A DNA stretch of 50,423 nt from an uncultured Rhodobiaceae bacterium (GCA_937911445.1 CALDQY010000297.1:1-50423); one strand, 5' to 3'. Counted from the first letter of the stretch, positions 11,247 through 43,046 are shown. Notes: generated by a model not told the origin, from the letters alone. Numbers and translations are program-made.

Positions 11247-11255
11247 GTGAAGACC

Positions 11256-11903: not shown

Positions 11904-12009
11904 CCTTCATATTCTTTCAGTGCTTTTTGTATGAAAACAGCATAATTTGATACCATGGCTGTGACCATTCAATCAATACTGCTAAACTGCAATTTGGTAT
12001 CGACAGGAC

Positions 12010-25441: not shown

Positions 25442-25523
25442 GAAGGCTGCGATTCAATCGCATGACAATTCATCGGGATTTTCGTAACTCATGGTTTTAG
25501 TACTCTCGGGACTTGGAAGAGGT

Positions 25524-27749
25524 ATGTCCGGCGAAGAAAACGAAGTATCCTTACGTGTTGCAAAAGCCATCCCATCTGATGTAGGCCATGGTCGAGCCCG
25601 AATTTCCGGTGAGCATGGTCTTGACCTCAAGCCAGGCGATATTGTCGAAATCAAAGGTGAGAAGCGCTCAACAGCAGCCATTTACTGGCGAAGCCGCCCT
25701 GAAGATTCCAAAATGGACATTGTCCGGATTGACGGCATCATTCGAAAGAATGCAGGTGTGAGTCTGGGCGATCGTGTCACAATTGCAAAGGCTGAGGCAA
25801 AGGAGTGCACCAAACTGACACTCTCTCCAGTCATGGCCAACAAGCAGAAAGTCAAGTTTGGTCCCGGCATCGAAGGCTTTGCTCGTCGAGGTCTCTCCAA
25901 GCGCCCAGTCATGGCCGGAGACCGTATCTTCATTCCAGGCATGACGCTGTTTGCTGAAGCGTTGCCGTTCGCTGTGGTTCAAACAACGCCCAAAGGGATT
26001 GTCAAGGTCACGAGCGATACGGACATCATCATCAAGGACGAAGCGATTGACGACGAAGACATTGGTCAATCGGAAGGAATCACCTACGAGGACGTTGGTG
26101 GCATTGGTCAGCAACTGCAAAAGGTTCGCGAAATGATTGAACTGCCACTGAAGCATCCAGAACTGTTCCGACGCTTGGGTATTGATCCGCCAAAAGGAGT
26201 TCTTCTCCATGGGCCACCAGGTACAGGAAAAACCATGATTGCTAAGGCGGTTGCAACCGAGGTCAACGCACACTTCAAGGCCATCAACGGCCCTGAAATC
26301 ATCTCCAAGTACTACGGAGAGTCCGAGAAACAACTCCGTGAAATCTTCGATGAAGCCAGCGAAAAGGCCCCTGCTATCATTTTCATTGACGAAATTGATT
26401 CAATCTGTCCGAAGCGAGAAGACGTCAGTGGCGAAGTCGAGCGACGTGTTGTTGCTCAAATGTTGACACTGCTCGATGGAATGCAAGGAAGGGACAACGT
26501 CGTTGTTATCGGTGCAACCAACCGTCGAGATGCACTCGACCCGGCACTGCGACGTGGTGGCCGTTTCGATCGAGAAATCGAGATTGGTGTCCCAGACCGT
26601 GAGGGTCGAAAGGAAATCATGGAAGTGCACACACGTCAGATGCCAATTGCGGACGACTTTGAAGTCAATTGGGTGCTTGACAACACGTACGGATTTGTTG
26701 GAGCTGACCTTGCCGCACTGGTCCGAGAAGCTGCCATGAAGGCACTTCGACGATACTTGCCAGAAATCGACCTCGATGAGGAGACCATCCCTCCTGAAGT
26801 CCTCGAGAAAATGGAAGTCAGGATGACCGATTTCCGTGACGCAATCAAGGACGTTGAGCCATCTGCTTTGCGTGAAATCTACGTCGAAGTTCCGGAAATT
26901 GCTTGGGACGAAGTCGGTGGACTTGACGAAGTCAAAGACCGACTCAAGGAATCGGTCGAGTGGCCGCTTACCAAGCCTGAGATTTTCGAGCACTTCAACA
27001 TCAAACCGCCACGAGGCATTGTTCTGTTCGGAGCACCTGGTACTGGTAAGACGCTCCTTGCCAAGGCCATTGCCAACGAAGCGCAAGCCAACTTCATCTC
27101 CATCAAGGGTCCAGAGATGATTTCCAAGTGGGTCGGTGAATCGGAGCGTGGTATTCGAGAGATTTTCAAGAAGGCCAAGCAATCCTCACCATCCATCATC
27201 TTCCTTGATGAGTTTGAGTCCATTGCAAGTATGCGAAACGCATCCAGCGGCGAGGGAAGTGACGTCGGCAACCGTGTTGTCAACCAACTTCTCGCCAGCA
27301 TGGATGGTGTAGAATCGCTCGACGGCGTCATCGTTGTTGCTGCAACCAATCGTCCAGAGATGATCGACCCTGCTCTGTTGCGCAGCGGCCGATTTGAGCG
27401 TGTTCTGCACGTGCCTCCGCCAGATGCTGCTGCTCGAGAGGCGATTTTCGACATCCACTCAACTGGCATGCCTCTTTCCAAATTCTCGTTGAAGGATCTC
27501 CTTTCCAGCATGGACGGATTTACCGGTGCGGACATCGAAGCAGTGTGTCGAGAGGCCGCCCTTATCGCTATGCGAGAAGACAAGAAGAAGGTCGCTAAGA
27601 AACACTTCGACGAGGCCATCACGCGAGTTCGTCCGACGGTGACGCCGGAGATGTTGGAGTACTACCAGAAGATGGAAACCCGATTAACATCGGGACTCTC
27701 CAACATCAAGCGAACACGTGATTACGGATTCGGCATGGAAACGATGTGA
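25524..27749 (+). CDS. cdc48: AAA+ ATPase Cdc48/VAT (CDC48 N-domain plus two AAA modules)
   Basis: N-domain [18 protein letters not shown]...[17 protein letters not shown]. Walker A motifs GPPGTGKT (D1) and GAPGTGKT (D2), with Walker B motifs IIFIDEID and IIFLDEFE. An upstream in-frame ATG at 25491 is the track start. The C-terminus is ...[10 protein letters not shown]. Confidence 0.95.
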
Positions 27750-28045
27750 GCACGGAAACGGTCAAGTCCTTTCTGTACCGACCAATCGTCAAGGCGAAAC
27801 CTATGACATCCAGTTTTGGACAGGAAATGCTCGGACGCGTTGTCCAAGATAAGAAAGGAAAAGAGCTTGGAAAACTCGCTGATTTGGTCATCGATGTTGC
27901 CAATGGAGAAATATCTGAACTTTTGATCCGTTGTGCAGAAAACATCGATGCAAGCCGCCTCCCATTTCCCTCGAAAGACGGGTCCATCGCCATTCCAAGC
28001 ACAGAAGTGTCCTCGTTTGGTCACGTCATTATGCTCAAAATCTGA
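27746..28045 (+). CDS. PRC-barrel domain protein (possible CdpB-type)
   Basis: MLGRVVQDKKGKELGKLADLVIDVANGEISELLI fits the PRC-barrel core pattern. The start is either GTG at 27746 (GTGA overlap with the cdc48 stop) or ATG at 27803 (80 aa). Confidence 0.65.
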   Translation: MSTETVKSFLYRPIVKAKPMTSSFGQEMLGRVVQDKKGKELGKLADLVIDVANGEISELLIRCAENIDASRLPFPSKDGSIAIPSTEVSSFGHVIMLKI

Positions 28046-28131
28046 TGAGCATTTTTGCATCAGAGTTGGACAACCTTCTAAACCGATGTGAAACCGTGTG
28101 TGTATGAACGGTGTACTAGGGAGGTGATGAA

Positions 28132-29748
28132 ATGGCGGCCGAGCGGAGCAGAAATCTCAAGCGAATTGGACTCCAATTTGCGTTCTGGGCCGTTCTGGGC
28201 ATCCTCCTCCTCACCATTCTTCAGAACTTCATCAACATTAGCCAAACCGACCAACTCTCTGCCTACGATGATGGTTGGGATGACATGTCTGCGTTCCGTG
28301 AGGACATCAAGGCTATGGGCGTTGAAACGAAATCCTTGGTCAGCAGCCCGCTCCTTCTTGCCGACATTGAAGATCCTCGAAACACAACGTTCGTTATCGC
28401 TGGTGTTGAACGGGACACGCTCTCTTTCCCTCAATTTGATGAGGATGGATTCATCACCATAGCGACCGAGGACGGTTATTCACCTTCTGAAGTCGATGCG
28501 ATTGTCGAATTCGTCGATAATGGGGGGACAGTCATCGTTCTGGAAGACTTTGGTTATGCTGGAAGCATTGGTGAAGCCTATGGCGTACGCTACTCTGGCT
28601 ACCAATTGTACGATACGAACTATGTTTCTGAATTGGATTACAACTACATCTGGATGTGTGTCCAAGCAAGCCCATGTGGAATGAACGGAACTGAACTCGA
28701 CCCGGCGACCATTGCGGAACACGAGCGTTGGTCTTCTGACGTTGGTGAGCATCCATGCGCAGAACTTGACGGTCAATCGATGACGCGCAGCGAAGCAGGC
28801 GTCTGTTCGCACCATTGGGTGAAGAGTGCAGGTGACCTTGGCCGAATCGAATACAATGCTACCTACACAATGCTCCTCAACAACGTAACTGGGCTCGAAA
28901 TCGTACCAGGCGTTCGGGGAGCTCTCAAAGACGTCAATGTCCGAGCCATCACCAGCAACCAAGCCACCGTTGACGTCAATGGAGATGGGGAACTATGGGT
29001 CAGTAACGAACAAACCAGTGAAACGCCTGATTTGTGGGGACAATTCAACCTCTCCATCGAAGCGTGCGCGTCAACAAGCTGCGATCCCGAAGAAGGTGGA
29101 CGTGTGTTCTTCATAGCCGATGGAAGTGCGTTGATCAATGCCATTTACGACTACGAAGGTTTCAATGCTGGTGAATATGGAAAGACGGACAAGTTCATTC
29201 CTGCCAACGACAATCGAAAGTGGGCACTCGATGTTATTGCTGAATCGCTCATGAGCACATTGGAAGGGGAGGAAGGCCAACCTGCTGAGAATGCTATGGT
29301 GATTTTTGACGAAAGTCGCCACCCACAAAACGCAATCCTTGCAGATTCGTACAACACGGTTTACTTCCTTCTTGTCTACTTCACAGGAGAAGGTCTGGCT
29401 ATGCTTGCCCTCTTCGTTGTTCTCTTCATCACATTTGAAGCCGTACTTCTCAAGAAGCGAGACCCTGAACCATGGCGGCACGTGTTTAGCATCATCTATT
29501 ACGGATTTGGCGATGCCAATCGTTACACCTACTACGCCAAAACGGAGAAGATACGGCAGGTATTTTTGTCGAAAGTTCGCAATCAAAATGGATTGACGGT
29601 TGAAGAATTCCATGCAATGTCGGCGAAGGAATTGGTCGGCCTCATCCAAGATCCGGTGTTGGCAAAATTCGCCATTGAGCCCGGAAAATATTCTCTTGAA
29701 CAATCGGTCGCCTTGGTCAAACGAATTAAGGCATGGGGGCGAAGGTGA
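28132..29748 (+). CDS. DUF4350-like membrane protein (N-terminal TM, large extracytoplasmic domain, C-terminal TM plus cytoplasmic tail)
   Basis: ATG at 28132 preceded by GGAGGTGA (28120-28127). VEFVDNGGTVIVLEDFGYAGSIGEAYGV resembles the DUF4350 core. TM helices lie at both ends. It sits immediately upstream of a DUF58 gene, as in MoxR/DUF58 clusters. Confidence 0.55.
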   Translation: MAAERSRNLKRIGLQFAFWAVLGILLLTILQNFINISQTDQLSAYDDGWDDMSAFREDIKAMGVETKSLVSSPLLLADIEDPRNTTFVIAGVERDTLSFPQFDEDGFITIATEDGYSPSEVDAIVEFVDNGGTVIVLEDFGYAGSIGEAYGVRYSGYQLYDTNYVSELDYNYIWMCVQASPCGMNGTELDPATIAEHERWSSDVGEHPCAELDGQSMTRSEAGVCSHHWVKSAGDLGRIEYNATYTMLLNNVTGLEIVPGVRGALKDVNVRAITSNQATVDVNGDGELWVSNEQTSETPDLWGQFNLSIEACASTSCDPEEGGRVFFIADGSALINAIYDYEGFNAGEYGKTDKFIPANDNRKWALDVIAESLMSTLEGEEGQPAENAMVIFDESRHPQNAILADSYNTVYFLLVYFTGEGLAMLALFVVLFITFEAVLLKKRDPEPWRHVFSIIYYGFGDANRYTYYAKTEKIRQVFLSKVRNQNGLTVEEFHAMSAKELVGLIQDPVLAKFAIEPGKYSLEQSVALVKRIKAWGRR

Positions 29749-31007
29749 GCATTATGTGGACACGTAAAGCATCCTTTACCTTCACTGGCGGTATTGCACT
29801 CATCCTCATTGGAATGATGATCACCAACAATCAAATGATGATTCTTGGATTGACCCTTATCACCTTCATCGTTGTCAACTCATGGGTCTCTGGACATGGT
29901 GATATCGAAGTACAACGTACACTCTCGGCAGACAACTTGTACAAAGGAGACGACCTGTACGTTGAACTCCTCGTTACAAATCGTTCAAATCGAAGAACTC
30001 AACTCTTGGATGTTTACGACAACATCCCACACGAGATGAAACTTCGAAGTGGTTTGAACCAAATGCGCCTGAACCTTCGTCCTGGAGAAAGCGCTCGAAT
30101 TCGCTACGTTCTCCGCTGTCCTCTGCGTGGACACTATTCGATTGGTCCCGTATCGCTGCGCGTGCGAAACACGTTCAATCTTGGTGTGGAAGACATGTAC
30201 GTTGACCACCATTCCGATATCGTGATTTTCCCACAGATCAAAGAGGTTGAGGAAGCCTTCCTTCGCTCCCGTACACCGAAAATGTACACAGGTGCTACAA
30301 CGCTTCGAACACCTGGTCAAGGGTCTGAATTCTACTCACTACGAGAATATGTGCCCGGTGATCCATTCAAGAACATCAACTGGAAGGCGTTTGCCCGCAC
30401 AGGTGATTTGATGGTTAACGAGAAATGTCGTGATGCTGTTACCGACTTGTACATCCTCCTCGATTCGAGGGATGTGGCTCGAATTGGAACGGTTCTGAAG
30501 AATCCACTGGAGATGGGTACGGTCAGTGCTGCGAGTCTTGCAGCTTTTTTCCTTAAGCGTAGAGACAGTGTAGCACTTGGAATCTATGGGGATGGATTGG
30601 CTTATCTTCCACCAGATACTGGAGACAAGCAGTACTTCAAAATCCTCAGTTCCCTTGCTGGCGTCAAGCCTGAAGGAAGCATGCCTCTCCAAGCGGTTAC
30701 CAATTCACTCAGTGGTCGATTCAGCCGTGGAAGCCCTGTGTTCGTCATTTCCTCATGTGAGGGTGACGGTACCGTTCCAGCAGCCGTTCGTGACCTCGTT
30801 GGACGTGGCCACGAAGTGACCGTGCTCTCACCATCGAGCATCGACTTCGAGCGACTCGTCTCTCGTATCCCTCGAATGTCCTATGAAGTTCTCAAACTTG
30901 AACGGCAGAACCGACTGACAACGCTGGCAGGTTCTGGAGCACAAGTCATCGACTGGATGCCTGACATGGATTTGTCGCAGGCGATCATGCAGGTGAGGGG
31001 GTATTAG
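29733..31007 (+). CDS. DUF58 domain protein (vWA-like, MoxR-associated family)
   Basis: Two N-terminal TM helices. Signature EFYSLREYVPGDPFKNINWKAFARTGDLMVNEK followed by DLYILLDSRD. Possible starts are ATG 29733, GTG 29745 (GTGA overlap with the upstream stop) or ATG 29754. Confidence 0.8.
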   Translation: MGAKVSIMWTRKASFTFTGGIALILIGMMITNNQMMILGLTLITFIVVNSWVSGHGDIEVQRTLSADNLYKGDDLYVELLVTNRSNRRTQLLDVYDNIPHEMKLRSGLNQMRLNLRPGESARIRYVLRCPLRGHYSIGPVSLRVRNTFNLGVEDMYVDHHSDIVIFPQIKEVEEAFLRSRTPKMYTGATTLRTPGQGSEFYSLREYVPGDPFKNINWKAFARTGDLMVNEKCRDAVTDLYILLDSRDVARIGTVLKNPLEMGTVSAASLAAFFLKRRDSVALGIYGDGLAYLPPDTGDKQYFKILSSLAGVKPEGSMPLQAVTNSLSGRFSRGSPVFVISSCEGDGTVPAAVRDLVGRGHEVTVLSPSSIDFERLVSRIPRMSYEVLKLERQNRLTTLAGSGAQVIDWMPDMDLSQAIMQVRGY

Positions 31008-32210
31008 ATGGCAGGAGAAGTCGACCCACAGAGCGATGTTTCTCTCATGGGAGGGCGTGCTCGTACGCTTCACCTCAAAGCGTTGAGGAAACAGTGGCAA
31101 ATCATTACGCTGCAAATTGTTTCCACAATCGCTCTTGTGTGGATGTATCTTGAGGTTGTTTCAACATACGTTGTCAATAGCATCGACCATACGATGCTTT
31201 TCGCTTCCCTTGAACAGCTCGTTGGTGAAGTGCCGATTGGCGACTGGCTCATTGGTTCAGGTCGAACTGGACTGGCACGATTTTACGTTCCAATCGTCTT
31301 AGGGTTGGGTCTTGGTGGCTCCATGGCGCTCCTGGCGTTCCAATCACCCCGTGTTCAGCAACGGATCAAACTTGGATTCATCATCACACTCATGGTTCTC
31401 CTCGTCGGACGACTTGTCTTGACTTGGATTCCTTCCATGCTCTTCTCCTGGGACCTTCGCCCACCATCTGAGAGTGAGCTAAAAACGTTAGAATGGCCAT
31501 TATTGATGATTCTCTCACTTGTTATTCTCTTCATCTATCTCTTGCCTGTTATCATGGGTACTCGAGGTATCTGGGGCCTCTCACGCCGCTCCATCGGCTG
31601 GGCGATTGGATTCACCCTCCTCTTCTTGGCCATCCACGCCATCTTGACCTTCCCTCTCATCAAATCACAACTTGGCGACTGGGGTTCGAACCTCATCTCA
31701 CTTGAGTCTCAAGTGAGTGATCCAACGGTTGGATTCCTTGGATTTGATTTGGTCACACCAGAGCAATTCTCACTCATCATGATCGCCGTTCTCATCATGG
31801 TCTTCCAAGAATCAGGATTCGGCGTTATTCGTTATCTTGAGTATGCATATCGGCTCCCAGAATCGTGCAAGCGAGACCCAGAATACGTTCGACAAATGGA
31901 CAACGTTCTCAATGGTCATCTGCGACATACCGCTGGCTTCCTGACTGTAACAGGCCTCGTTACGATGATTGCTCTCGGGTTCCACAGTGTATTGCTTGAA
32001 GTGGTTCGAAATTCCACAGGAAGTCAATGGGCTGCTCAAGTCTCAGAATCGATTGAACTATCGCTAACCTACGGGTTGGTCATTTCTGCACTTCTGTTCC
32101 TCAGTTTGGTCGCAATCCTTCGATTCTTTGTACCATGGCAACGTGTATGGGGCCTGATTGAATCGATGACCAACAATCAGCCTGAACCGGTCAAAGAAAA
32201 GGAATTCTGA
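31008..32210 (+). CDS. Polytopic membrane protein (about 9-10 TM), unknown function, last gene of the DUF4350/DUF58 cluster
   Basis: The ATG directly abuts the DUF58 stop (TAGATG at 31005-31010). Hydrophobic helices run throughout, and I recognise no motif. Confidence 0.6.
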   Translation: MAGEVDPQSDVSLMGGRARTLHLKALRKQWQIITLQIVSTIALVWMYLEVVSTYVVNSIDHTMLFASLEQLVGEVPIGDWLIGSGRTGLARFYVPIVLGLGLGGSMALLAFQSPRVQQRIKLGFIITLMVLLVGRLVLTWIPSMLFSWDLRPPSESELKTLEWPLLMILSLVILFIYLLPVIMGTRGIWGLSRRSIGWAIGFTLLFLAIHAILTFPLIKSQLGDWGSNLISLESQVSDPTVGFLGFDLVTPEQFSLIMIAVLIMVFQESGFGVIRYLEYAYRLPESCKRDPEYVRQMDNVLNGHLRHTAGFLTVTGLVTMIALGFHSVLLEVVRNSTGSQWAAQVSESIELSLTYGLVISALLFLSLVAILRFFVPWQRVWGLIESMTNNQPEPVKEKEF

Positions 32211-32447
32211 TTATCTATCGGCACGCATCACCTGAATTGTGCGGCCAATTATTTCATTGAGAATCAGCATGCTTAATGCAAGTCCAACCGATGCAAGCCA
32301 TTGGTACCACATCACATCAATGGACGACCATAGAATTTGATTGAGGAAAACGAAACCGACAATCGATGCAAGGAAAATCAGTTTTTCTAGGTACAATGGA
32401 TAAGCAGAACCCTTGGATTCATTTCTGCGAAGGAGTGTCTCAGACAT
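32211..32447 (-). CDS. Small (78 aa) two-TM membrane protein coupled to the upstream coiled-coil gene
   Basis: The ATG at 32447 lies 9 nt after the upstream stop. On the minus strand this reads TTGAGGTGAGGGGATG, so a GAGGTGA Shine-Dalgarno overlaps that stop. There are two hydrophobic helices. Confidence 0.5.
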   Translation of the reverse strand: MSETLLRRNESKGSAYPLYLEKLIFLASIVGFVFLNQILWSSIDVMWYQWLASVGLALSMLILNEIIGRTIQVMRADR

Positions 32448-32456
32448 CCCCTCACC

Positions 32457-35400
32457 TCAAAAGTCCAATTCAGAGAGTTGGTCATGAAGTGCGTCCAAAC
32501 GAGGGTCGCTCTTGGGCTCCTCTACCTTTGGGGTGCGAAGTTGTCGCTCTGCATCAAGGCGTGCGAGTTCTGCCTCGAGGTCGGCTCGATCCTCCTGAAT
32601 TGGGATACTAGGTGTTTCCACAACGCCCTCTGTCGTGGTTTCAGATTCAACAGGTGCTGGCATTTCTTCCCATTCATCGGACAGCTCGACGATCGGTTCA
32701 GCATCCAACGATACGCTTTCTTCAATGACGAGTGTAGGCTGAATGTTTTCCATCATATCGTCCATCACCGGTGTTCGCTGGCCAACTGGGATGGCTGTGC
32801 GTTCGAATGGAAGGAAGCCATCCCTTTGGAAATCCCACATAGCACCACGTGGAACGCCTTTTGTCAATCCTGACGCATCGATTTGTGTCAATAACTCCTC
32901 GAGTACCTGTGCCGTTTGCTCAAGGGCAATGGCTTCACCAGCATCACGCTGGTCAGCTTCGAGATAGATATCATCGAGGGCAACTCGAATCAAACGTCGT
33001 GTTTCAACTGCAACACTTGGCAAAGCTTCGGGACGCATACAGTTCATGCGCAGTGCTTCGATTTCTTCTGGTGGTGCTCCAAGATTTCCAAGTTGATCCA
33101 GGACATTCCGCATGCGTCGAAGCATGGTGATGGAGCGATCGTAATCCTCCAAGATACCTTCGAGGTCAAGAATCAAGTGGCCTACAGTTTCACCGAGTTG
33201 ATTCTCCAATCGCTGTTGAACCGACCATCGAGCAAGACCACGTACTGCTCCAGCAGTTTGAGGAACTTGTCGTTCGAGGAGGGTCATGACCTCACTGCTC
33301 AACAGATGTCGAGGTGTTGCTGCAATGTGATCGACCGTTGATTGCACAACTTGAAGCGCACGTTCAACGGCTCGGTCAAGAAGCACAACGGAGTAGCCCA
33401 AAGTACGTGCGTGCTCAAGCCGATCGAGTACAGGGCCAAGGCCACGGAATGTAGCATCATCGTTGAGCAGTGCCTGTGCAAGCGGTTCCTCGTTAAGCCG
33501 TGCACGCAGTCGTTCCGCTTCAGCAATATCAGCAACGGCTTCTTCGTGAGCATCTGTTAATGCTTCAGCACGTGCAATCAAACCAGAGAGCTCAGTCTCA
33601 GCATTTCCACGGCGAGCTCCTAGATTACCAAGTTCAGTAAGCAGTTCTTTTCGTTCTCCCATCAATTCCCGCATTTCAGAATGGAGTTGCATTCGACGTG
33701 CTTCATCCTCAGCAAGTCGTTGCCGCTCTTCCTCTGCTCTACGTCGACTGGCGAGTGTTTCGGCTTCGATTTGATCTAAGCGTGCTTGAGCAGATCGAAT
33801 CTTTTCTTCAGAAGCGTTGCTCTTCGATTGAGCACTTGCTTGTCGATCTCTAAGAGTCGTGATTTGTTCCTCAAGGGAACGCAATCGACGCTCTTCAAGC
33901 TCGATTTGTTCGCGGATTGAGGAAAGTTGTTGGGCATTGGATTCCAAATCTGCTCGAGTGGTCGCCTCTTTGTTGGAGAGCGTTTCAAGTTCATCACGCA
34001 ACGCTGCGCTACTTTCCGTATCACCGAGTGCTTTTGCCAACTCAGCAGCACGTTCACTGAGTTGATGTTCAAGTTCACCAACTCTTCGAAGAAGGCGATC
34101 TGCACGTTCTTCTGCCTGTTCCATGCGAGTTCTCGATTCTGATACAGTGACCTGAACGCGATTCAATTCATCGTTCTTGGACTGAATAGCATCGCTTTGC
34201 TCGCCCGATGATTGTTTGATGGCATCAAGACGAACCAATGCTTCAGTACGCTCCTTTTCAGCATCCTGGAGTTGACTCGTCAGACTTGCATTGGTTCGCA
34301 TGAGTGTATCTGCTCGTCGCTCGGATTCTTCGAGTCGTCGGCGTAAACCAGCATCGACACCTGCAAGTGGTGCCGCAGTTGGTAGCGCTTGTACAGCCTC
34401 TTGTCCACCTACGTGGATGCTTAATTTCGACCGAATAACTCGTACCTCGTCGAGACCAATTTCAAAACCATACATGCTCATCAATCGATGCATCATGGAT
34501 TCACGACGCTTTTCTGAACGGGTTCGAACCGTTGAAAGCGACTCAACAAACTGCTTGAGCGTGAATTCAGAAACATCCCCTGTTGACGATGAAACCATGG
34601 TACCTGATGCAAGTCGATGCAATTTGAGGACACGCTTGCTTTCTGTAAGTCCCTGCATAGCCTCTTCAAACGACTGGCCGTTCGCAGCCATGGCAACTGG
34701 AAGTCCATTGTTGAGAGCGAGTGATACCGCTTTGTCGCTTACTCCTGCCTTGAGATGCCCTGTAACCCGCTCTTCAAGCGCAGCAGAAAGCATGGACATG
34801 ACCGCATCTGCACCACCCTTCCCTTCGCGTAGCACAAATCCATCAGGGAGCGTAGCAGAACCTTCGGCATAGGTTCCAATCTCACCATCGAGTTTGGCCG
34901 CAACATCCGTCAATAACCGTGTGTGGTTGGCATCGATTTCGGTCCAGATGGCCAACACGATGGTGGAGCTGGATGCAATGAGCAGTGAGGCATCGCCCAT
35001 GGAGAGGGATGCATAGCCATTGACATTTCCACCAAGCTTTGCTTGTTGAGCATTCATGGAATCGGAGAGTGTAGCAACGGTTGCAGAAAGCTCCTCCGCA
35101 GTTCCTGGCAAATCGCCCATACTATCGATGAGAATTCCTTGATCTGCTGCAAGCGCACCTCGAACGTGCTCGTAATCGGAAAGTGCTTGAAGAACAGCAG
35201 AAATGTTTCTGGCGAACAATCGGTCTGTCAATGAGCTGCTCGCCCCTAAACCCTGCGTATCGGCTTGGAATTCAAACGCCTCTGGAAGAAGAGCAGCAAG
35301 TTCTGCAAGCCCATGCATCGAACATGTTGATGCAACAAGTCGATGTTGGTTCTTTTCCGCTTCTTCCAACGCATCTCGGGCATCAGCACCGCCGAGGAGT

Positions 35401-35588
35401 TTGGTGGCACTGGAGCCTTCGCAGATCCAACCTACAACACGTCCAGCCCGTACCAAACGATGGCCAAACGGTGTCTTCCTGCGACCCACCCAGGTCGTGA
35501 TGAATCCATGTTCGAAGGGTTGGATAGCTCCTGTGGCTACATCCACTTCGTCGTCAAATCGTTCAATATGCGGTAAATCAAACATCAT
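32457..35588 (-). CDS. Large (~1,043 aa) Roadblock/LC7-like plus long coiled-coil protein with acidic C-terminus
   Basis: Probable start at ATGATG (35588-35583), overlapping the upstream TGA and with GGTGA just upstream. The track start is an ATG at 35615. Track aa ~135-232 are Roadblock-like (VLQALSDYEHVRGALAADQGILIDSMGDL...LLIASSSTIVLAIWTEIDAN). Track aa ~422-712 (nt ~33480-34352) are continuous E/R/L/Q/A-rich coiled coil. I found no P-loop. Confidence 0.7.
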   Translation of the reverse strand: MMFDLPHIERFDDEVDVATGAIQPFEHGFITTWVGRRKTPFGHRLVRAGRVVGWICEGSSATKLLGGADARDALEEAEKNQHRLVASTCSMHGLAELAALLPEAFEFQADTQGLGASSSLTDRLFARNISAVLQALSDYEHVRGALAADQGILIDSMGDLPGTAEELSATVATLSDSMNAQQAKLGGNVNGYASLSMGDASLLIASSSTIVLAIWTEIDANHTRLLTDVAAKLDGEIGTYAEGSATLPDGFVLREGKGGADAVMSMLSAALEERVTGHLKAGVSDKAVSLALNNGLPVAMAANGQSFEEAMQGLTESKRVLKLHRLASGTMVSSSTGDVSEFTLKQFVESLSTVRTRSEKRRESMMHRLMSMYGFEIGLDEVRVIRSKLSIHVGGQEAVQALPTAAPLAGVDAGLRRRLEESERRADTLMRTNASLTSQLQDAEKERTEALVRLDAIKQSSGEQSDAIQSKNDELNRVQVTVSESRTRMEQAEERADRLLRRVGELEHQLSERAAELAKALGDTESSAALRDELETLSNKEATTRADLESNAQQLSSIREQIELEERRLRSLEEQITTLRDRQASAQSKSNASEEKIRSAQARLDQIEAETLASRRRAEEERQRLAEDEARRMQLHSEMRELMGERKELLTELGNLGARRGNAETELSGLIARAEALTDAHEEAVADIAEAERLRARLNEEPLAQALLNDDATFRGLGPVLDRLEHARTLGYSVVLLDRAVERALQVVQSTVDHIAATPRHLLSSEVMTLLERQVPQTAGAVRGLARWSVQQRLENQLGETVGHLILDLEGILEDYDRSITMLRRMRNVLDQLGNLGAPPEEIEALRMNCMRPEALPSVAVETRRLIRVALDDIYLEADQRDAGEAIALEQTAQVLEELLTQIDASGLTKGVPRGAMWDFQRDGFLPFERTAIPVGQRTPVMDDMMENIQPTLVIEESVSLDAEPIVELSDEWEEMPAPVESETTTEGVVETPSIPIQEDRADLEAELARLDAERQLRTPKVEEPKSDPRLDALHDQLSELDF

Positions 35589-35959
35589 ATCACCTTGGTT
35601 TGCTGTGCATTCCATTCTCGTCGCAGGCGTTCAAGTTCGTACTTCCAAACGCCTTTCCTGCCGTCTTTTCCTGAGAGGTAAACGAACAAATCGCTATCGA
35701 AGTGGTCGACAAGTGTCAGCCTCCGTCCTTCCATCCAAACCTCAAACAGTGGGCCAAGGTCGAGTTGTTCAGCGATTGAACAACATGTTGCCCATTCACT
35801 GCGTTGTTCTTCAACGGATTCTGGCCACTTTTTCGTGGTTTGGAGCATGCTTCCAAATTGATCCATCAAACGAACATGACGTACGCCGTCGAGTTCGCAA
35901 AGTTGAGGAAACAACGTGTTTAGCATGCTAGCCCAAACCCTTTGACAGCAACGTACCAT
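35585..35959 (-). CDS. Small Roadblock/LC7 (MglB-like) domain protein
   Basis: LCELDGVRHVRLMDQFGSMLQTT...LDLGPLFEVWMEGRRLTLVDHFDSDLFVYLSGKDGRKG fits the Roadblock/LC7 pattern. ATGs lie at 35959 and 35926 (113 aa). The stop overlaps the start of the next gene. Confidence 0.5.
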   Translation of the reverse strand: MVRCCQRVWASMLNTLFPQLCELDGVRHVRLMDQFGSMLQTTKKWPESVEEQRSEWATCCSIAEQLDLGPLFEVWMEGRRLTLVDHFDSDLFVYLSGKDGRKGVWKYELERLRREWNAQQTKVI

Positions 35960-35981
35960 TCAAGAACTTTGCCGAAACTCT

Positions 35982-35996
35982 TCCCCCGTAGGGGGA
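35982..35996. repeat. Perfect 6-3-6 palindrome TCCCCC-GTA-GGGGGA
   Basis: Read directly from the divergent intergenic region between the Roadblock operon and the tRNA thiolase gene. Confidence 0.6.
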
Positions 35997-36005
35997 TTTG
36001 GCGAC

Positions 36006-36145
36006 GAAATTCAAAATTCCAACTGCGAATTTTCAAAATGATGTGCGCGGAGATGTTTACGTAATGCTTTTTCCGCGTTCTGGGTGAGGCTAGCGGAATC
36101 AATGGTTGTAGAAAATTCCAATTGTAATTTTGAAAATTCAATTGA
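36006..36145. repeat. Nested repeat array: motif AAAATTC(C)AAYTG x3 and a ~20-nt inverted repeat pair about 100 nt apart
   Basis: Motif copies lie at 36013-36025 (AAAATTCCAACTG), 36112-36124 (AAAATTCCAATTG) and 36133-36144 (AAAATTCAATTG). GAATTTTCAAAAT (36027-36039) is the exact reverse complement of ATTTTGAAAATTC (36127-36139). Each arm is itself palindromic (AAAATTC..GAATTTT). Confidence 0.7.
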
Positions 36146-36207
36146 GATTTTACTTCGTGATTAGGCCCAATCGGAGGCGTTTAATGCAGGTGTTGTGAGG
36201 AATCAAC

Positions 36208-38660: not shown

Positions 38661-40487
38661 TTGTTGCCAAAGAGTATGCAAAGAGTCGGTGGTTTCTTCA
38701 TCAAAACCATGTGTGCTCAATTCATGCTCTGGGGGGATGTCGATGAAGCGATTAAGGCTGAACGACTTCTTAGAGTCCAGAGAATCGAGCGATTAAGCAC
38801 CATTTGTGCCTTGTTTTGTTTGAGTGGAGCCATCTGGTTGGCTTGGCCGGTTCTCAAGGATGCTTTTGTTGGCGACGCGAGTCTGCTCACAGGACTCGGT
38901 ATGCCCGTCTTGGTGCTGTTGTGGGGTATCGTCATTCAGGATTTGATCCTCGACGATCCTCGTGCGCGGACACGAATTGGAGCAGCTACAAGCATTGTTT
39001 GGCCAGTGTTGCTGATGTTCTCGCTCCGTGCATACTCATCGAGCATGGCTGACATTGCAGCGACCATTCTCTTCGCATCGTTGGGATTGGCTATGTACCA
39101 ATCCTCAGCAAACACACTACGTGGTGGCATTGATGTGATGCGTTTCCGGGCGATGATGACGAGCCTTGGTGCATTAACTGTGGTGGGAATGCTTGTCGGT
39201 GATCGTGCAGGTGAAACATGGATTGACGAGCCAAAAGATTGGGCGCATCCTCTTCTCAGCCTCTTCGTTGTAGGACACGTGGTCTACCTCTGGTTCATCG
39301 GTGATGATATGCGTGAAGAACGGAAAGCCTTCCGTCAAGAATTGGATGCCATCGAGAACCGTCTTCTTGTCTTGCGTTCCGAAGGGGCAGCTGTTGACCA
39401 AGCCAGCAGCCTTGTCATGACAGCGAAGGAGGAAGGACACATCGATCCTGCCTTTGGTATGCGTTTGCTTCGAGAGGCGGCTGAGGACATTGAACGCTCT
39501 CTTTCGCTTGCAACCGATGTGGATGTTGTGCGAAGTGAAGCCCTACTCGTTATCCAACATGCTGAAGAATTGGCGCCACTGGCAAAGCGTCCCCGTAAAT
39601 CCTACGAAATGGGTGAGCGCGAAGCGAGCCTTGGTTCGCTACGAGAAGCGGAAGGGTTGTTCCGTCAAGCCAAGCGCCGTGCTCAAGAAATCGTTACCTG
39701 GTGGGAACAAGCAGAGGAAGCCATACGCACGGCAGAAGAACTGCTCACAGGCCAATCTGGTGCAACCATTGACAACCTGCGTCAAATTGTACGTGATGCG
39801 AAGAAACAACTCGATCGTGAAGCGCCCAAGAAAGCCTTCGAACTTGCTTGTGTGATTCCTATTCAACTTCAAGCCGATGGTGACGCAAAAGAACGTGCTG
39901 TCGAAGTTCTCGGTGATGCTGCAAAGGCGCTCAAGGCTGCAGATGGATTCGATACATCCGAACTTGAACACCGACTCGAACAAGCCGAGGCTGCTCTTGA
40001 AGCAGGTGATACCGGTCAATCCATCGGTCTGGCCGAAGGTGTCATTCGTGTGATTCAGGTCGAACGTGAGGCCATGGAAACCGTTCGAAGGGCTCTTCGA
40101 CAACGCAAGAAAATCACTGAACGGTTCGGTGGTTTCGCCGATGAGAAGGAATGGATGACACGATTCAAGCAGGTTCAGTCAGCGGCTGATGATCGTCAAT
40201 GGAGTCATGCTGCAACACTGCTTGAACGCCTCACCGTCGATCTCGATGCCCTTGGTAATGAGCAAGGTGAGGCACAGACTCTGCTCGATTTCCTTCGTCA
40301 GGAATGGTCTGTTTTGAGAAATCAGTGCACGGCATCGAGCATTCCTGTGACAGATGAAGACATGAAACAAACCGAGGCTTCTATTGCACTTGCCGAAGAG
40401 CGACTCATTGGAGGCCAAGTAGAGGCTGCTTTGGAACAACTTGGACAAGCAGATGCATCCATGGAGCGTTTGCGACGACGTGTTTGA
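38661..40487 (+). CDS. Membrane protein (about 6 TM) with ~380-aa charged all-helical C-terminal domain, unknown function
   Basis: ORF only. The track start is TTG at 38661, with in-frame ATGs at 38676 and 38709 (and a further one at 38724). The N-terminal half is hydrophobic. The C-terminal half is E/A/R/L-rich with repeated AEEA/LEQAEAALEAG-type helices. Confidence 0.6.
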   Translation: MLPKSMQRVGGFFIKTMCAQFMLWGDVDEAIKAERLLRVQRIERLSTICALFCLSGAIWLAWPVLKDAFVGDASLLTGLGMPVLVLLWGIVIQDLILDDPRARTRIGAATSIVWPVLLMFSLRAYSSSMADIAATILFASLGLAMYQSSANTLRGGIDVMRFRAMMTSLGALTVVGMLVGDRAGETWIDEPKDWAHPLLSLFVVGHVVYLWFIGDDMREERKAFRQELDAIENRLLVLRSEGAAVDQASSLVMTAKEEGHIDPAFGMRLLREAAEDIERSLSLATDVDVVRSEALLVIQHAEELAPLAKRPRKSYEMGEREASLGSLREAEGLFRQAKRRAQEIVTWWEQAEEAIRTAEELLTGQSGATIDNLRQIVRDAKKQLDREAPKKAFELACVIPIQLQADGDAKERAVEVLGDAAKALKAADGFDTSELEHRLEQAEAALEAGDTGQSIGLAEGVIRVIQVEREAMETVRRALRQRKKITERFGGFADEKEWMTRFKQVQSAADDRQWSHAATLLERLTVDLDALGNEQGEAQTLLDFLRQEWSVLRNQCTASSIPVTDEDMKQTEASIALAEERLIGGQVEAALEQLGQADASMERLRRRV

Positions 40488-43046
40488 TCAGACAAGGTCT
40501 CGTTGAACCAAATCACTGTGATTGATACCGCTCGGCAATCCAAGATCGACAGGCATACCAGCGATGGTCGTGATGACACCATAGAGGTGCAAGTAGAGTC
40601 CATGTGGAGGCTCACGTTCTCCGTTGTATGGAATCTTTTTCCAAAGATTGGATTTCATCCAGTACTTCGATACGGATTGATCCTTTGAGTGAACTATCCA
40701 GGCATTGGCTCGCCCTGCATGCTTTCTGGCTTGTGTTGAACCGAGTCGTGGTGAGATGTGAACTGTATGCAAAATAGGCCACTCTCGCATCCAATCGCCT
40801 GCAGAGTCGATGAGCATGGTCATCTTGGTCGGTTCTGTAGCCATTGCATCAAGCAGTCCCAATTCATTCAGAATTCGAGCCAATGAACGAACGTGTGGAT
40901 GACGTGGCTCCTGTTTCCTCAATTCACGTGCAATACGAACAGCCGTGTTTGGTCGACCTGCATCAAGGTGCAACAGGGCTGTAACTACTCGCCCTTGTGA
41001 CCACGTCGATGTTGGCAATTCAGCGTGTTCCTCATGCTTCTTCATGAAGGCTTCAAGCATCGACAAGGCTTCTTCGCTCCGTCCACTGAGACGCATTCGA
41101 GCACAATCGCCGAGCAGCATCAATCGATCAGCTGGCTTGTTTCGATAGGTGGTATTGGCTCGAGGCTCTCCGTTCGCCGTTCTGTTGAGCAAATCGATGT
41201 TTCGACGCATGAGCGGATCAACACCGAGAACGGGTTGTGAGGCACTCGGAACACTTCGTTTTGAATCAAGCACGGCAGCAAACCATTGCAATCGAGCTGC
41301 TTCGATGTCGCTCTTGTTCAAGAGTGCAAGTCGAGGCGCAGCCTCTGGGAGATCTCGTTGACAGAGACTTGCAGCTGCAAGAATCAATCGTGCAACTTGT
41401 GCATCCCGACCTGTTTGTAATGCAAGCAATGAGACTGCGTTTTCCTCCGCTTCCTCCCATCGATTCAACCCAGCAAACAACTGCATTTTCGCTCCCGTTT
41501 GCCGCAACAAGTCCAATCCTTGCGTTGATGATTCAGTCGGATTCAGGATTTCATCGTAATGTTCGATGGCTCGCGTCCATTTGTCTTGAGCAATCAATTC
41601 CGTAAATGGTCGCTGTTTTAGATAGATCATGTCTTCCATCTGTGTCAACATTTGGCGCTGCTCACTGATGCTTGCATCAAAGGTGATATCATCGAGTTTG
41701 GAGCCGACCTGAAGCGATGTAAGCCAGATGAGAAGAAAACAAATTTGACCCCCAGATGCCAACATCCAGGTCAATTCTTCCATCGCATCCTTCTCGACAT
41801 AGGTGCACAGCGTGTTTTCCCAATCACCACAAGCACCGCCTTGTGGAAGGAACGAGGAATCCCAGAATGTGATCATGGCGAGAGCGAGAAGGAGCATCGA
41901 CTGTCCCGCAAATCCTGTGAAACAGAAGTTGAGTACTTTGGCTTGTTGAGAGCGTTCTGCACGAAGCAATCGACTGTCTGCTAAACGAATACCTCCTCGA
42001 CCCGAAACATCTTGAACATCGAGGAAAAGAATCCTTGCAACTTCGTAAACGAACAGGAAGCCAACCAAGGCAACGTTGAGGAGAAGGAACAACAGAATTG
42101 ACGTGACCAGTGGGACACGTAATCCTGGATCTGGAATGTTGGAAAACAACTCGATAAGGAAGAATCCAAGGATTCCACCTTCTTCCATGATGGTTGCTTG
42201 TTCTCGGTATTCTGGAAGTTCGAGAACTCGTTCAGAATGCGTGAACAATTCAGGCGCAACAAGGATGGCGATCAACGAGAGCAGCGTGTTGATGGCGACC
42301 ACAGGCATGGCCAATGTGTTGAGATGAACAATTCGTGCGATCACTTGCTGACGCGCATTTGGTGCATGATTGTGGAATGGAGAAGGATTGCCTTTCGCAA
42401 TCTGAGCAGATGATTGACGAAGCGCTTGCCATGACGTCCCCATGACTCGGCCATATGCAACGATAGAAGGCGAAAAGGCAAGGAGCAACGATGCGCTAAG
42501 TCGATGCGTAAATGGAACGCCCCACGAGCCGAGAAGTGAGTAAAACAGGCCTACACCAAGGAACCAGAAGATTGTCAGGGCGATGTAAGCGGTGTTGCGT
42601 GCACTGCTGGATTCCTGCAACTTTGCTTTCCCATGTCCAATTGGTTTGATAATTTGGGCGCCCAGAGAAGAACCCGATGAAATGATTGCAGGAAGGATAA
42701 TCAGAATCAATGCGAGTGAAATGTTTGGAGCGTGAAAACCGTCGCTCTTACCTTGTGCATAGATGATGTATTCAAAGAAGAGAAGCAATGCACCTGTCAG
42801 TGCAAAAAGGTAGGTTGCGACTCCGAAACGCATGCCGCGTGAACGAAGCAAATCACGTGCTTCACCAAACGATTCTGTTACTGTATGGACCTCGTATCGC
42901 ATAGGCCCTGTCTCGAATGCAACTTGCAATCCACGCAATTGTCGTGGAACAACCGTTCGCCAAAACAACAGGGCGATGACGGCTGCTAAGATCAATGGAA
43001 CAACGGCGATGGAGGCAAACCCCTCAACTATCACCGGTCCAGTCAT
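40488..43046 (-). CDS. Large (852 aa) polytopic membrane protein with TPR-like helical-repeat C-terminal domain, unknown function
   Basis: ORF with at least 10 hydrophobic helices in the first ~470 aa, then an A/L/R-rich helical-repeat region. I recognise no catalytic motif. Its stop abuts the convergent gene's stop (TGATCA). Confidence 0.6.
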   Translation of the reverse strand: MTGPVIVEGFASIAVVPLILAAVIALLFWRTVVPRQLRGLQVAFETGPMRYEVHTVTESFGEARDLLRSRGMRFGVATYLFALTGALLLFFEYIIYAQGKSDGFHAPNISLALILIILPAIISSGSSLGAQIIKPIGHGKAKLQESSSARNTAYIALTIFWFLGVGLFYSLLGSWGVPFTHRLSASLLLAFSPSIVAYGRVMGTSWQALRQSSAQIAKGNPSPFHNHAPNARQQVIARIVHLNTLAMPVVAINTLLSLIAILVAPELFTHSERVLELPEYREQATIMEEGGILGFFLIELFSNIPDPGLRVPLVTSILLFLLLNVALVGFLFVYEVARILFLDVQDVSGRGGIRLADSRLLRAERSQQAKVLNFCFTGFAGQSMLLLALAMITFWDSSFLPQGGACGDWENTLCTYVEKDAMEELTWMLASGGQICFLLIWLTSLQVGSKLDDITFDASISEQRQMLTQMEDMIYLKQRPFTELIAQDKWTRAIEHYDEILNPTESSTQGLDLLRQTGAKMQLFAGLNRWEEAEENAVSLLALQTGRDAQVARLILAAASLCQRDLPEAAPRLALLNKSDIEAARLQWFAAVLDSKRSVPSASQPVLGVDPLMRRNIDLLNRTANGEPRANTTYRNKPADRLMLLGDCARMRLSGRSEEALSMLEAFMKKHEEHAELPTSTWSQGRVVTALLHLDAGRPNTAVRIARELRKQEPRHPHVRSLARILNELGLLDAMATEPTKMTMLIDSAGDWMREWPILHTVHISPRLGSTQARKHAGRANAWIVHSKDQSVSKYWMKSNLWKKIPYNGEREPPHGLYLHLYGVITTIAGMPVDLGLPSGINHSDLVQRDLV

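Follow-up and report, generated by a model that had tools for sequence, protein, structure and literature searches.

A conserved three-gene locus of Marine Group II archaea encoding two predicted Roadblock/LC7 units, a long coiled coil and a candidate membrane anchor

Roadblock proteins are dimeric platforms, and in the Ragulator complex Roadblock heterodimers are assembled and anchored to a membrane (PMC10933270). A preliminary description of the window (the whole stretch of 50,423 nucleotides analysed here) pointed to a Roadblock/LC7 gene followed by genes for a giant Roadblock and coiled-coil protein and for a small membrane protein, with no GTPase gene nearby. The locus thus raises the question of whether these three genes form one module and what its function could be; a scaffold, cytoskeletal or polarity system may be envisaged.

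Gene organization and conservation of the locus

The host of the window is a Candidatus Poseidoniaceae (Marine Group II) archaeon. Poseidoniales are abundant, uncultured archaea of the ocean. As illustrated in Table 1, ORF analysis placed all three genes on the minus strand, neighbours being separated by a stop/start overlap or by 9 nt, in agreement with the translational coupling described earlier. The stop codon of gene 1, TGA at 35587-35585, shares nucleotides with the first ATG of the gene 2 ATGATG start (35588-35586) with GGTGA immediately 5' of it, and gene 3 starts 9 nt past the gene 2 TGA, within GAGGTGAGGGG; both junctions could be read in the sequence as previously reported.

Table 1. 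Features of the three-gene locus and of the adjoining intergenic region (positions in the window)
Feature	Position	Strand	Remarks
Gene 1 ORF	35585-35959	-	124 aa; 113 aa if the ATG at 35926 is used
Gene 1, predicted small divergent Roadblock/LC7 protein	35585-35926	-	113 aa; in-frame ATG upstream at 35959 gives 124 aa
Gene 2 ORF	32457-35615	-	1052 aa; 1043 aa if the ATGATG at 35588 is used
Gene 2, 1043-aa multidomain protein	32457-35588	-	Start overlaps gene 1 stop
Gene 2 D1, residues 1-118	35235-35588	-	Beta-rich, with conserved motif
Gene 2 D2, residues 119-238	34875-35234	-	Predicted Roadblock/LC7 fold
Gene 2 D3, residues 245-335	34584-34856	-	Alpha/beta domain
Gene 2 predicted coiled-coil-type helical region, residues 411-685	33534-34358	-	Composition, local SMC/Rad50 similarity
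Gene 2 all-helical C-terminal domain, residues 686-945	32754-33533	-	Highest conservation in the protein
Gene 2 acidic tail, residues 946-1043	32460-32753	-	Net charge -21
Gene 3, predicted two-helix membrane protein	32211-32447	-	78 aa
Divergent intergenic region, gene 1 / TtuA-like gene	35960-36207		Two copies of a 25-nt AT-rich element

The three ORFs are real genes and not chance ORFs, because the databases contain 319 relatives of gene 2 with lengths of 1040-1065 aa, named hypothetical and found only in marine Poseidoniaceae or Euryarchaeota MAGs, and because the flanking ORFs recur. The relatives were located in 209 species-level genomes, from which the best 80 loci were fetched. When flanking ORFs were counted in 84 loci (these 80 and four fetched earlier), 80 had a full large ORF and were scored by a simple ORF rule: an upstream ORF of about 113 aa was present in 73 of them and a downstream ORF of about 80 aa in 78, the misses being mostly over-extended start calls. 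The triplet therefore occurs in essentially all of the best 80 species-level genomes fetched (of 209), and is also kept around gene 2 homologues with 32-33% identity; both the 4-nt overlap and the spacer of 9 nt are preserved across clades, along with Shine-Dalgarno-like sequences. In an exhaustive HMMER search of 1.84 billion proteins with gene 2 residues 1-405, no more than 72 representatives were recovered; about 12 of these are full-length (32-54% identity). The triplet, for which a synteny test had been suggested, is syntenic in each genome examined; it is real, conserved group-wide and unstudied.

The surrounding region is syntenic family-wide as well, on the CDC48 side in 71/71 loci and on the side of the TtuA-like gene, pyrI and pyrB in 74/74. 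Linkage by itself is therefore no proof of shared function, and the co-occurrence of the triplet is a weaker argument for an operon than it appears at first sight. In the intergenic region upstream of gene 1, the AT-rich element is found at 36013-36037 and 36112-36136. A 13-mer of it lies at a constant offset in 15 loci, with three matches across the window versus 0.36 expected by chance. The operon promoter probably sits in this putative regulatory region.

Two Roadblock units and the other parts of the three proteins

Homologues of gene 1 are mostly called at 113 aa. The window copy itself had no Pfam match at E<=10, but it aligned with the positional orthologues of other clades by hhalign with a probability of 98.7% (E 2.4e-16, 106 columns), and PF03259 (Robl_LC7) was matched by 14 of the 19 family members scanned, which include 15 more typical orthologues (best E 4e-6). 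Seven out of 10 members scanned singly matched Robl_LC7; one passed its curated cutoff of 23 bits (26.9 bits) and the other six scored 13.6-21.9 bits. Three of the five top matches of a profile search against the PDB were Roadblock-family proteins (7f8m, 9jue and MglC 7ct3, E 0.2-0.6), and the gene 1 profile aligned in register with D2 of gene 2 over 68-70 columns (hhalign E 0.001-0.004). By these profile comparisons gene 1 is predicted to encode a divergent Roadblock/LC7 protein, as first proposed.

A second Roadblock-like segment had been noticed at about residues 135-232 of the gene 2 product. In the AlphaFold2 (AF2) model, residues 129-234 have the topology a-b-b-a-b-b-b-a with a core pLDDT of about 80-89. 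A Foldseek search against the PDB, the check proposed at the outset, gave only Roadblock, MglB, LAMTOR or dynein LC7 structures among the 50 top matches listed (50/50; target-normalised TM 0.59-0.77). The best match was 9jue (E 1.9e-6, TM 0.74), and 98 matches had E<=1e-3. The D2 profile also matched PDB sequences, namely CvnB5 (3leq, E 5.4e-5, 93 of 120 positions) followed by 7f8m, LAMTOR4 and 7yh1. In Pfam scans, Robl_LC7 was absent at the D2 position in 16 close homologues and present below threshold in four of nine distant ones (best E 6e-4). The modelled structure thus assigns residues ~120-235 to the Roadblock fold, and D2 has detectable sequence similarity to known Roadblock members.

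D2 is flanked by two further domains. D1 bears the conserved motif GRRKTPxGHRLVRxGRxVGW and is modelled with strands at residues 27-34, 42-47, 50-57, 63-66 and 82-88 and helices at 67-77 and 91-100 (pLDDT 72-88), while D3 has the order b-a-b-b-b-a-b (pLDDT 83-90). No consistent Pfam match was found for D1 in 14 members, nor any for D3 in 15. The possible DUF4388/PATAN-like N-terminal segment of the preliminary description was not borne out. PF14332 (DUF4388) had no match in scans of 25 members at full length, of 14 D1 segments and of 15 D3 segments. Compared by hhalign with 120 real DUF4388 proteins, D1 reached an E of 0.042 and D3 one of 0.078, no better than the Roadblock control (0.018). 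A stray match to DUF2226, which is related to DUF4388, was seen in one D1 member (E 0.098).

The long uninterrupted coiled coil reported at nt ~33480-34352 was recovered. Residues 411-685 are rich in E, A, R and L (16, 14, 13 and 13%), and residues 415-643 contain no proline and three glycines. From its composition this region is predicted to be a coiled-coil-type helix of about 275 residues, which would span about 40 nm if continuous. Residues 416-700 show local similarity to the arms of SMC and Rad50 proteins (E 2e-9), with comparable helix length. Membership in that family was rejected, since the protein has no ATPase head, Walker A motif or hinge, and its SMC/Rad50 NCBIfam matches are confined to the coiled-coil arm (15-35 bits versus cutoffs of 567-1087).

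The helical domain that follows is the best-conserved part of the protein. Its identity is 75-81% at a whole-protein identity of 53%, and 47-63% in the remotest homologues. Its AF2 model has a pLDDT of 78.7 (core >90) and a pTM of 0.72. No relative was found in the PDB or Pfam: the best Foldseek E against the PDB was 0.7 (TM<=0.27 for the top matches and <=0.41 anywhere among those listed), and the PDB sequence profile search gave no match below E 0.8. The protein ends in the acidic tail, at whose end two short helix-like motifs are conserved (RAxLEAELARLDA ... DPALAALExxLSxLD[FLM] as the consensus of 72 distinct tails), consistent with the terminal helix noted before. No match of the large protein to any characterised family was found.

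The product of gene 3, described as a 78-aa protein with two transmembrane segments, indeed has two Kyte-Doolittle maxima (1.97 and 1.68, at residues ~17-41 and ~45-68). The motifs R-x-E-xx-G-xx-YP-xxx-ER and E-xx-GR-xx-Q lie on either side of the helices in 72 sequences. The gene 3 protein is therefore predicted to be a membrane hairpin of two helices, bordered at either end by conserved polar motifs. The gene is present in a lineage with 33% identity (L085), and an FG-GAP protein occupies its place at two other loci (L087 and L088). The absence of the membrane gene from one lineage counts against a scaffold reading.

Possible working of the module and competing explanations

The window proteins scanned included no member of a small GTPase family, and Walker A motifs occurred in these 50 kb only in CDC48 (two) and in an antisense frame (one). 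The annotated flanks (up to 10 kb) of eight related loci (L001-L004 and L085-L088) also contained no small GTPase. The local absence of a GTPase remarked on earlier holds. Its use as a distinguishing feature does not, since 328 of 749 MglB homologues in one survey were not encoded beside MglA (PMC4316618), so that a Roadblock protein with no adjacent GTPase is not remarkable in itself.

We tentatively propose, at somewhat less than even confidence and with a function that is inferred, that the three genes are one operon for a Roadblock scaffold that is attached to the membrane and confined to Poseidoniales archaea. To our knowledge, all solved Roadblock proteins form a two-subunit platform. 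The gene 1 protein would pair with D2 of gene 2 in such a platform, as in MglB-MglC and LAMTOR2-LAMTOR3. The coiled coil would dimerise and lengthen the large subunit, and the gene 3 hairpin would tether the complex to the inside of the cell membrane, the conserved helices of the tail perhaps serving as contact. Partners whose genes lie elsewhere, possibly an NTPase among them, could then be recruited or regulated by the platform together with the conserved C-terminal domain. In the window's clade, gene 1 is only ~27% identical to other clades, D2 39-44%, D1 48-56% and D3 56-66%, and beta-3 of D2 has changed from HWTLHT to YASLSM. Because gene 1 is strongly diverged and D2 is the most diverged of the N-terminal domains, the two possibly co-diverged. 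In mirror-tree (distance-matrix) tests D2 did not stand out as the gene 1 partner, and gene 3 versus the tail gave a partial r of 0.47, falling to 0.31 in a sub-clade, no better than for the coiled coil.

Alternatively, the triplet might be a classical GTPase regulator, the Roadblock pair serving an unlinked small GTPase (MglA-, Arf- or Rag-like) as GAP or GEF and the coiled coil and anchor merely positioning it. We consider this unlikely, though it deserves attention: the nearest structural matches include the MglB-MglA complex and Ragulator subunits, the best sequence match comes from a GTPase-containing Streptomyces conservon (PMC4316618), JGI pipelines label two homologues 'predicted regulator of Ras-like GTPase activity', and small GTPases are present in some Thermoplasmatota relatives (PMC4915359). 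Against it stands the lack of a small GTPase in the 50 kb and in the eight flanks; moreover, MglB contributes no catalytic residue, so that this activity has no diagnostic sequence signature. It is less probable again that the large protein forms filaments or acts in cell shape like crescentin or intermediate filaments, its coiled coil polymerising under the membrane and its Roadblock units serving just in assembly or capping. The rod is long and free of proline and a dedicated membrane partner exists, but the weak crescentin-rod and tropomyosin Pfam matches of family members (E 0.07-0.15) are compositional, and the globular C-terminal domain is better conserved than the rod.

The adjoining convergent cluster encoding CDC48, PRC-barrel, DUF4350, DUF58 and 400-aa membrane proteins could also be involved, with the triplet working, for instance, as adaptor or regulator of this AAA+ ATPase system. 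No spacer separates the two clusters (32210/32211), their adjacency is kept in all 71 loci and around the homologues of 32-33% identity, and such a role would fit the older idea of Roadblock proteins as general NTPase regulators, a proposal of Koonin and Aravind as cited in PMC4316618. However, the equal conservation of the opposite flank looks like general synteny, convergent clusters are not co-transcribed, and the rates of evolution differ sharply (for an identity of 53% in the large protein and ~27% in the small one, DUF58 has 91-99%), which makes this explanation quite improbable. The idea that the genes are neighbours by descent alone, with unrelated functions, agrees with the synteny of the whole region; it appears the least credible of all, given the coupled gene junctions kept across clades and two Roadblock units in neighbouring genes, which match the known pairing habit of these proteins.

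Comparison with known systems

The best structural matches of D2 are the Asgard archaeal Roadblock proteins (9jue, 7yh1 and 7f8m), stand-alone dimers of ~115-120 aa that resemble gene 1 in size. They are single-domain homodimers studied for their link to Rag/Rab-like GTPases, and have neither a coiled-coil fusion nor a membrane partner. CvnB5, the closest sequence match of D2, belongs to a conservon that further comprises genes for a histidine kinase, a DUF742 protein and a GTPase (PMC4316618), none of which was found among the neighbours of the triplet scanned.

In the Myxococcus polarity module, MglB and MglC share the fold of D2 (Foldseek E 2e-5 to 1e-4, TM 0.6-0.7), and two paralogous Roadblock units are likewise encoded together and expected to pair. 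The triplet differs in having no MglA-type GTPase or RomR/RomX nearby, in carrying one Roadblock unit inside a protein of 1043 aa that also has a coiled coil and a novel domain, and in its dedicated membrane protein and archaeal host. In the eukaryotic Ragulator (LAMTOR1-5), a small anchor subunit keeps Roadblock heterodimers on the membrane as a docking platform (PMC10933270), and LAMTOR2/3/4 are among the structural or sequence matches of D2. Its anchor is lipidated and wraps the dimers, whereas the candidate anchor of the triplet is a two-TM hairpin. Rag GTPases, a coiled coil and a C-terminal helical domain are all absent from Ragulator. The likeness of the triplet to Ragulator would be no more than a functional analogy.

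Gene layout and conservation of the triplet

The preliminary description had proposed three adjacent ORFs on the minus strand, and all three were present at exactly those positions (see table). They encode a small putative Roadblock/LC7 protein (gene 1), a large protein (gene 2) and a small membrane protein (gene 3). The first ATG of gene 2 shares the sequence ATGA with the TGA stop codon of gene 1 and is preceded by GGTGA, while gene 3 starts 9 nt past the gene 2 stop, within GAGGTGAGGGG. G+C content is about 50% along the whole window, which also carries the housekeeping genes pyrB, pyrI and those for a TtuA-like PP-loop enzyme, ThrRS, CDC48, succinate dehydrogenase, Hjc and NAD kinase.

Coordinates of the triplet, of the predicted domains of the gene 2 protein and of other features in the window
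Feature	Position	Strand	Remarks
Gene 1 ORF	35585-35959	minus	124 aa; 113 aa from the ATG at 35926
Gene 2 ORF	32457-35615	minus	1052 aa; 1043 aa from the ATGATG at 35588
Gene 3 ORF	32211-32447	minus	78 aa
D1 of gene 2	residues ~9-100		beta-rich, two helices (AlphaFold2)
D2 of gene 2	residues 129-234		helix-strand-strand-helix-strand-strand-strand-helix, i.e. Roadblock topology (AlphaFold2)
D3 of gene 2	residues 251-325		strand-helix-three strands-helix-strand (AlphaFold2)
CDC48	25491-27749	plus	
PRC-barrel protein	27746-28045	plus	99 aa
DUF4350	28132-29748	plus	
DUF58	29733-31007	plus	
Multi-TM protein	31008-32210	plus	400 aa, no Pfam match
DisA-type cyclase and Macro-domain genes	10401-11903	minus	281 aa (DAC domain) and 215 aa
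PA14/Laminin_G_3 protein	12010-17286	plus	1758 aa
Uncharacterized protein	38661-40487	plus	608 aa, no Pfam family
Uncharacterized protein	40488-43046	minus	852 aa, no Pfam family
Gene 1 extension	35927-35959	minus	MVRCCQRVWAS
GC hairpin	35986-35998		CCCCCTACGGGGG
25-nt element	36013-36037 and 36112-36136		AAAATTCCAAYTGYRAATTTTSAAA, two copies

Most gene 1 homologues are 113 aa long. In the window, starting at an in-frame ATG further upstream would lengthen the protein by 11 residues; this open frame is retained in the window's own clade only, and the 113-aa form is the one called in most databases. A GC hairpin lies just upstream of the extended start, and the divergent intergenic region that separates gene 1 from the TtuA-like gene carries a 25-nt element, AT-rich and partly palindromic, in two copies. 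The 13-mer core of this element occurs three times in the window (0.36 expected) and stands at the same offset in 15 related loci. The element may be a promoter or operator element. A scan for bacterial promoters and terminators was uninformative on this archaeal DNA.

Relatives of gene 2 were found in 209 genomes in a scan using one genome per species. Conservation was counted over the best 80 of these 209 loci (53-98% identity) and four loci fetched earlier, and 80 of the resulting 84 carried a full large ORF. According to a mechanical ORF rule, 73 of these 80 had an ORF of about 113 aa upstream and 78 had one of about 80 aa downstream, most of the misses being due to over-long start calls; the triplet recurs in other genomes. 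An exhaustive HMMER search with gene 2 residues 1-405 against 1.84 billion representative proteins gave 72 matches, none of them outside the gene 2 family; about 12 were full-length (1020-1089 aa, 32-54% identity) and the remainder were fragments. The homologues bear names such as Candidatus Poseidoniaceae archaeon or Poseidonia sp., and Poseidoniaceae is placed in Poseidoniales, Thermoplasmatota. The most distant ones have the same architecture and the same neighbourhood. Judged from these names, the scope of the search and the architecture of the distant homologues, the family is order-restricted and of a single architecture. It is annotated as hypothetical everywhere except in two JGI entries, which are named 'predicted regulator of Ras-like GTPase activity (Roadblock/LC7/MglB family)'. 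In the literature searched, Poseidoniales and Roadblock proteins are linked in passing mentions only.

In L085, from a distant lineage, the large gene is followed by an 83-aa two-TM gene; the contig breaks off shortly before the large gene, so that of an upstream ORF no more than the C-terminal 33 codons are present. In L087/L088, which represent the most distant lineage (large protein 32% identical), a 100-aa gene lies upstream, and an FG-GAP protein is found instead of a small two-TM protein. This 448-aa FG-GAP repeat protein (positions 11221-12567 of both loci) has a hydrophobic segment at the N-terminus and a TM helix at the C-terminus, and its gene overlaps the end of the large gene by 50 nt.

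Predicted domains of the three proteins

Pfam and NCBIfam searches with the three window proteins returned coiled-coil noise only, and the gene 1 protein of the window had no match in either. It belongs to a sub-clade with a strongly diverged small protein (23-31% identity to the others). PF03259 (Robl_LC7) was matched by 14 of the 19 gene 1 family members scanned (best E 4e-6). Among ten members scanned individually, seven matched, one above the curated cutoff of 23 bits and six below it, at 13.6-21.9 bits. In other clades, the orthologues at this position resemble typical Roadblock proteins, and their profile aligned with that of the window's clade over 106 columns (hhalign probability 98.7%, E 2.4e-16). 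When the family profile was compared with PDB sequences, 7f8m, 9jue and MglC (7ct3) were in the top five, at E 0.2-0.6. Gene 1 therefore very probably encodes a divergent Roadblock/LC7 protein, in agreement with the preliminary description.

The N-terminal 405 residues of the gene 2 protein were modelled with AlphaFold2 from 16 homologues (mean pLDDT 78.7). The model contains three domains, followed by a long helix at residues 359-386. When it was compared with the PDB by Foldseek, 98 matches were obtained at E<=1e-3, and all 50 among the matches listed were to the Roadblock family. Those to D2 included the Asgard Roadblock 9jue (E 1.9e-6, TM 0.74), 7yh1, 3kye, MglB, LAMTOR2/3/4/5 and dynein LC7. 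A D2 profile including distant homologues matched CvnB5 (3leq) at E 5.4e-5, followed by 7f8m, LAMTOR4 and 7yh1, and sub-threshold Robl_LC7 signals occurred at the D2 position in four of nine distant homologues. The gene 1 and D2 profiles were also in register over 68-70 columns (E 0.001-0.004, hhalign). By model topology, structural matches and profiles, D2 is thus predicted to be a Roadblock domain, and the second Roadblock-like segment that had been placed at residues ~135-232 was correctly recognized.

No signal of internal duplication (D1/D3, D1/D2 or D2/D3) was detected by hhalign, and comparison of the model with viral structures by Foldseek gave weak longin- or profilin-like matches and none for D1 or D3. 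The PATAN/DUF4388 assignment suggested earlier for the N-terminus was not supported. PF14332 was matched neither by 25 full-length gene 2 members nor by the isolated D1 and D3 domains. Six synthetic DUF4388 baits, built from a consensus and matching PF14332 at 1e-25, were used to fetch 120 real DUF4388 proteins; when these were compared by hhalign, E was 0.04 for D1 and 0.08 for D3, neither significant nor better than the 0.018 of a Roadblock control. With E 5e-4, a synthetic bait also matched PF09987 (DUF2226, 'conserved in archaea'), which makes DUF2226 look like a PATAN relative from archaea; a single D1 sequence gave a stray DUF2226 match (E 0.098), too weak to use.

Residues 411-685 are rich in E, A, R and L, with no proline and three glycines in residues 415-643, and are predicted to form a coiled-coil-type rod of about 40 nm if continuous. 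Their sole database similarity, far under family cutoffs, is to SMC and Rad50 arms; membership of these families was ruled out because the protein, which contains no Walker A motif, has no ATPase head. Residues 686-945 are the most conserved part of gene 2 (75-81% identity, against 53% for the whole protein, and still 47-63% in the most distant homologues). Their model is all-helical with a confident core (pLDDT >90, pTM 0.72). No relative was found by PDB sequence profile, and the best Foldseek match in the PDB had E 0.7 (TM <=0.27 for the top matches and <=0.41 among the matches listed). The last ~100 residues form an acidic stretch (net charge -21) that varies apart from two short conserved motifs, RAxLEAELARLDA and DPALAALExxLSxLD[FLM].

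The gene 3 protein has hydrophobic stretches at residues ~17-41 and ~45-68. Two polar motifs are kept in 72 sequences, R-x-E-xx-G-xx-YP-xxx-ER before the first stretch and E-xx-GR-xx-Q after the second. Since basic residues are present at both ends, the positive-inside rule suggests that both termini are probably cytoplasmic. Coiled coil, helical domain, acidic tail and two-TM partner all accord with the preliminary description, whose anatomy of the triplet was largely right.

Genomic neighbourhood

The stops and starts of the CDC48-to-multi-TM cluster (25491-32210) overlap or abut, and these five genes look like one operon. The multi-TM gene stop at 32210 abuts the gene 3 stop at 32211, with no spacer. 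DUF58 and DUF4350 are usual companions of MoxR-type ATPases; the sole AAA+ protein in this cluster is CDC48. The 400-aa membrane protein and DUF58 genes were kept in all 71 loci with enough downstream sequence, and the TtuA-like gene in all 74 with enough upstream sequence. Between clades, identity is about 27% for gene 1, 29-40% for gene 3 and 53% for gene 2, against 91-94% for DUF58 and 85-90% for CDC48, so that the triplet evolves much faster than its neighbours. Over all clades with 53% identity in gene 2, DUF58 stands at 91-99%.

The 608-aa protein has hydrophobic segments in its N-terminal part and a long helical region rich in E, A and R; ORFs of 588 and 851 aa in the related locus L001 match it and the 852-aa gene in length and position, indicating that the region holds several lineage-specific conserved unknowns. 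The DisA-type diadenylate cyclase gene lies directly downstream of the Macro-domain gene on the same strand, with a 10-nt gap, pairing cyclic-di-AMP synthesis with ADP-ribose binding. The 1758-aa protein is probably a giant surface adhesin, of a kind common in Marine Group II genomes.

A putative membrane-fixed Roadblock scaffold

To our knowledge, all solved Roadblock proteins are dimers forming a platform for partners. Here, the gene 1 protein would pair with D2, the rod would dimerise and extend the large subunit, the gene 3 protein would fix the complex to the membrane, and the platform and the conserved C-terminal domain would bind partners encoded elsewhere. Such a membrane-fixed scaffold is the most economical reading, and we favour it tentatively, with a little less than even confidence. 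In the window's clade, divergence is unusually high in both the gene 1 protein and D2, and it extends to the beta-3 strand, which is the dimer seam in known Roadblock dimers; this joint divergence hints at pairing. Mirror-tree results were uninformative: the gene 3 protein and the tail were linked in the full set (partial r 0.47, permutation p 0.001) but not robustly in a 44-sequence sub-clade, and comparison of gene 1 with each gene 2 domain did not single out D2.

The same complex could serve a small GTPase encoded elsewhere, which we regard as rather unlikely. Pfam scans found no GTPase among the window proteins, the 50 kb contain just three Walker A motifs, two of them within CDC48 and the third in an antisense frame, and the annotated flanks of eight related loci contain no GTPase either. 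The local absence noted in the preliminary description is therefore real, yet it is not exceptional: in 2014, Wuichet and Sogaard-Andersen surveyed 749 MglB homologues and counted 328 'orphans', so that close to half of the Roadblock genes of prokaryotes were found apart from a GTPase gene, and none of these orphans had been characterised (PMC4316618). We consider it unlikely that the triplet is a cell-organisation system found in Poseidoniales alone, self-contained and independent of GTPases, in which a Roadblock heterodimer on a ~40-nm coiled-coil stalk has its own membrane anchor and the novel, highly conserved C-terminal domain is the working part that marks or builds a specific membrane site (such as a pole, a division site or an envelope structure). 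If true, no 'orphan' Roadblock platform of prokaryotes would have had a function assigned before it.

The predicted rod would also suit a filament or shape protein, an identity of the large protein that we consider distinctly improbable. A role of the triplet as partner of the adjacent CDC48/DUF4350/DUF58 cluster would fit their constant proximity; against it stand the very different rates of the two groups, and we judge this role very unlikely. Since synteny extends over the entire region, the conserved triplet is weaker evidence of functional coupling than it looks, and the three genes might be mere neighbours. Stronger arguments for coupling are the stop/start packing across clades and the two Roadblock units in adjacent genes, and mere proximity appears the most improbable of these explanations.

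The defining domain of the system, Roadblock/LC7, is already known; its new elements are the architecture, the C-terminal domain with its conservation and a membrane partner of its own. The family is unstudied and limited to a single order of archaea. Among the archaea of the surface ocean, Poseidoniales (Marine Group II) rank with the most abundant. We know of none in culture, so their cell biology is known from genomes only. The triplet by itself opens no long-standing question, and its host is hard to work with. Its operon, without a named function, is kept among housekeeping genes across the family-level diversity fetched and in relatives of 32% identity. The Ragulator, TRAPP and dynein-light-chain platforms of eukaryotes descend from archaeal Roadblock platforms, and a Roadblock pair combined with a coiled coil, a new domain and a membrane anchor would offer a defined case for the function of orphan platforms. 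In Ragulator, Roadblock dimers are fixed at the membrane by a small anchor subunit (PMC10933270), the part that the gene 3 protein would play here.
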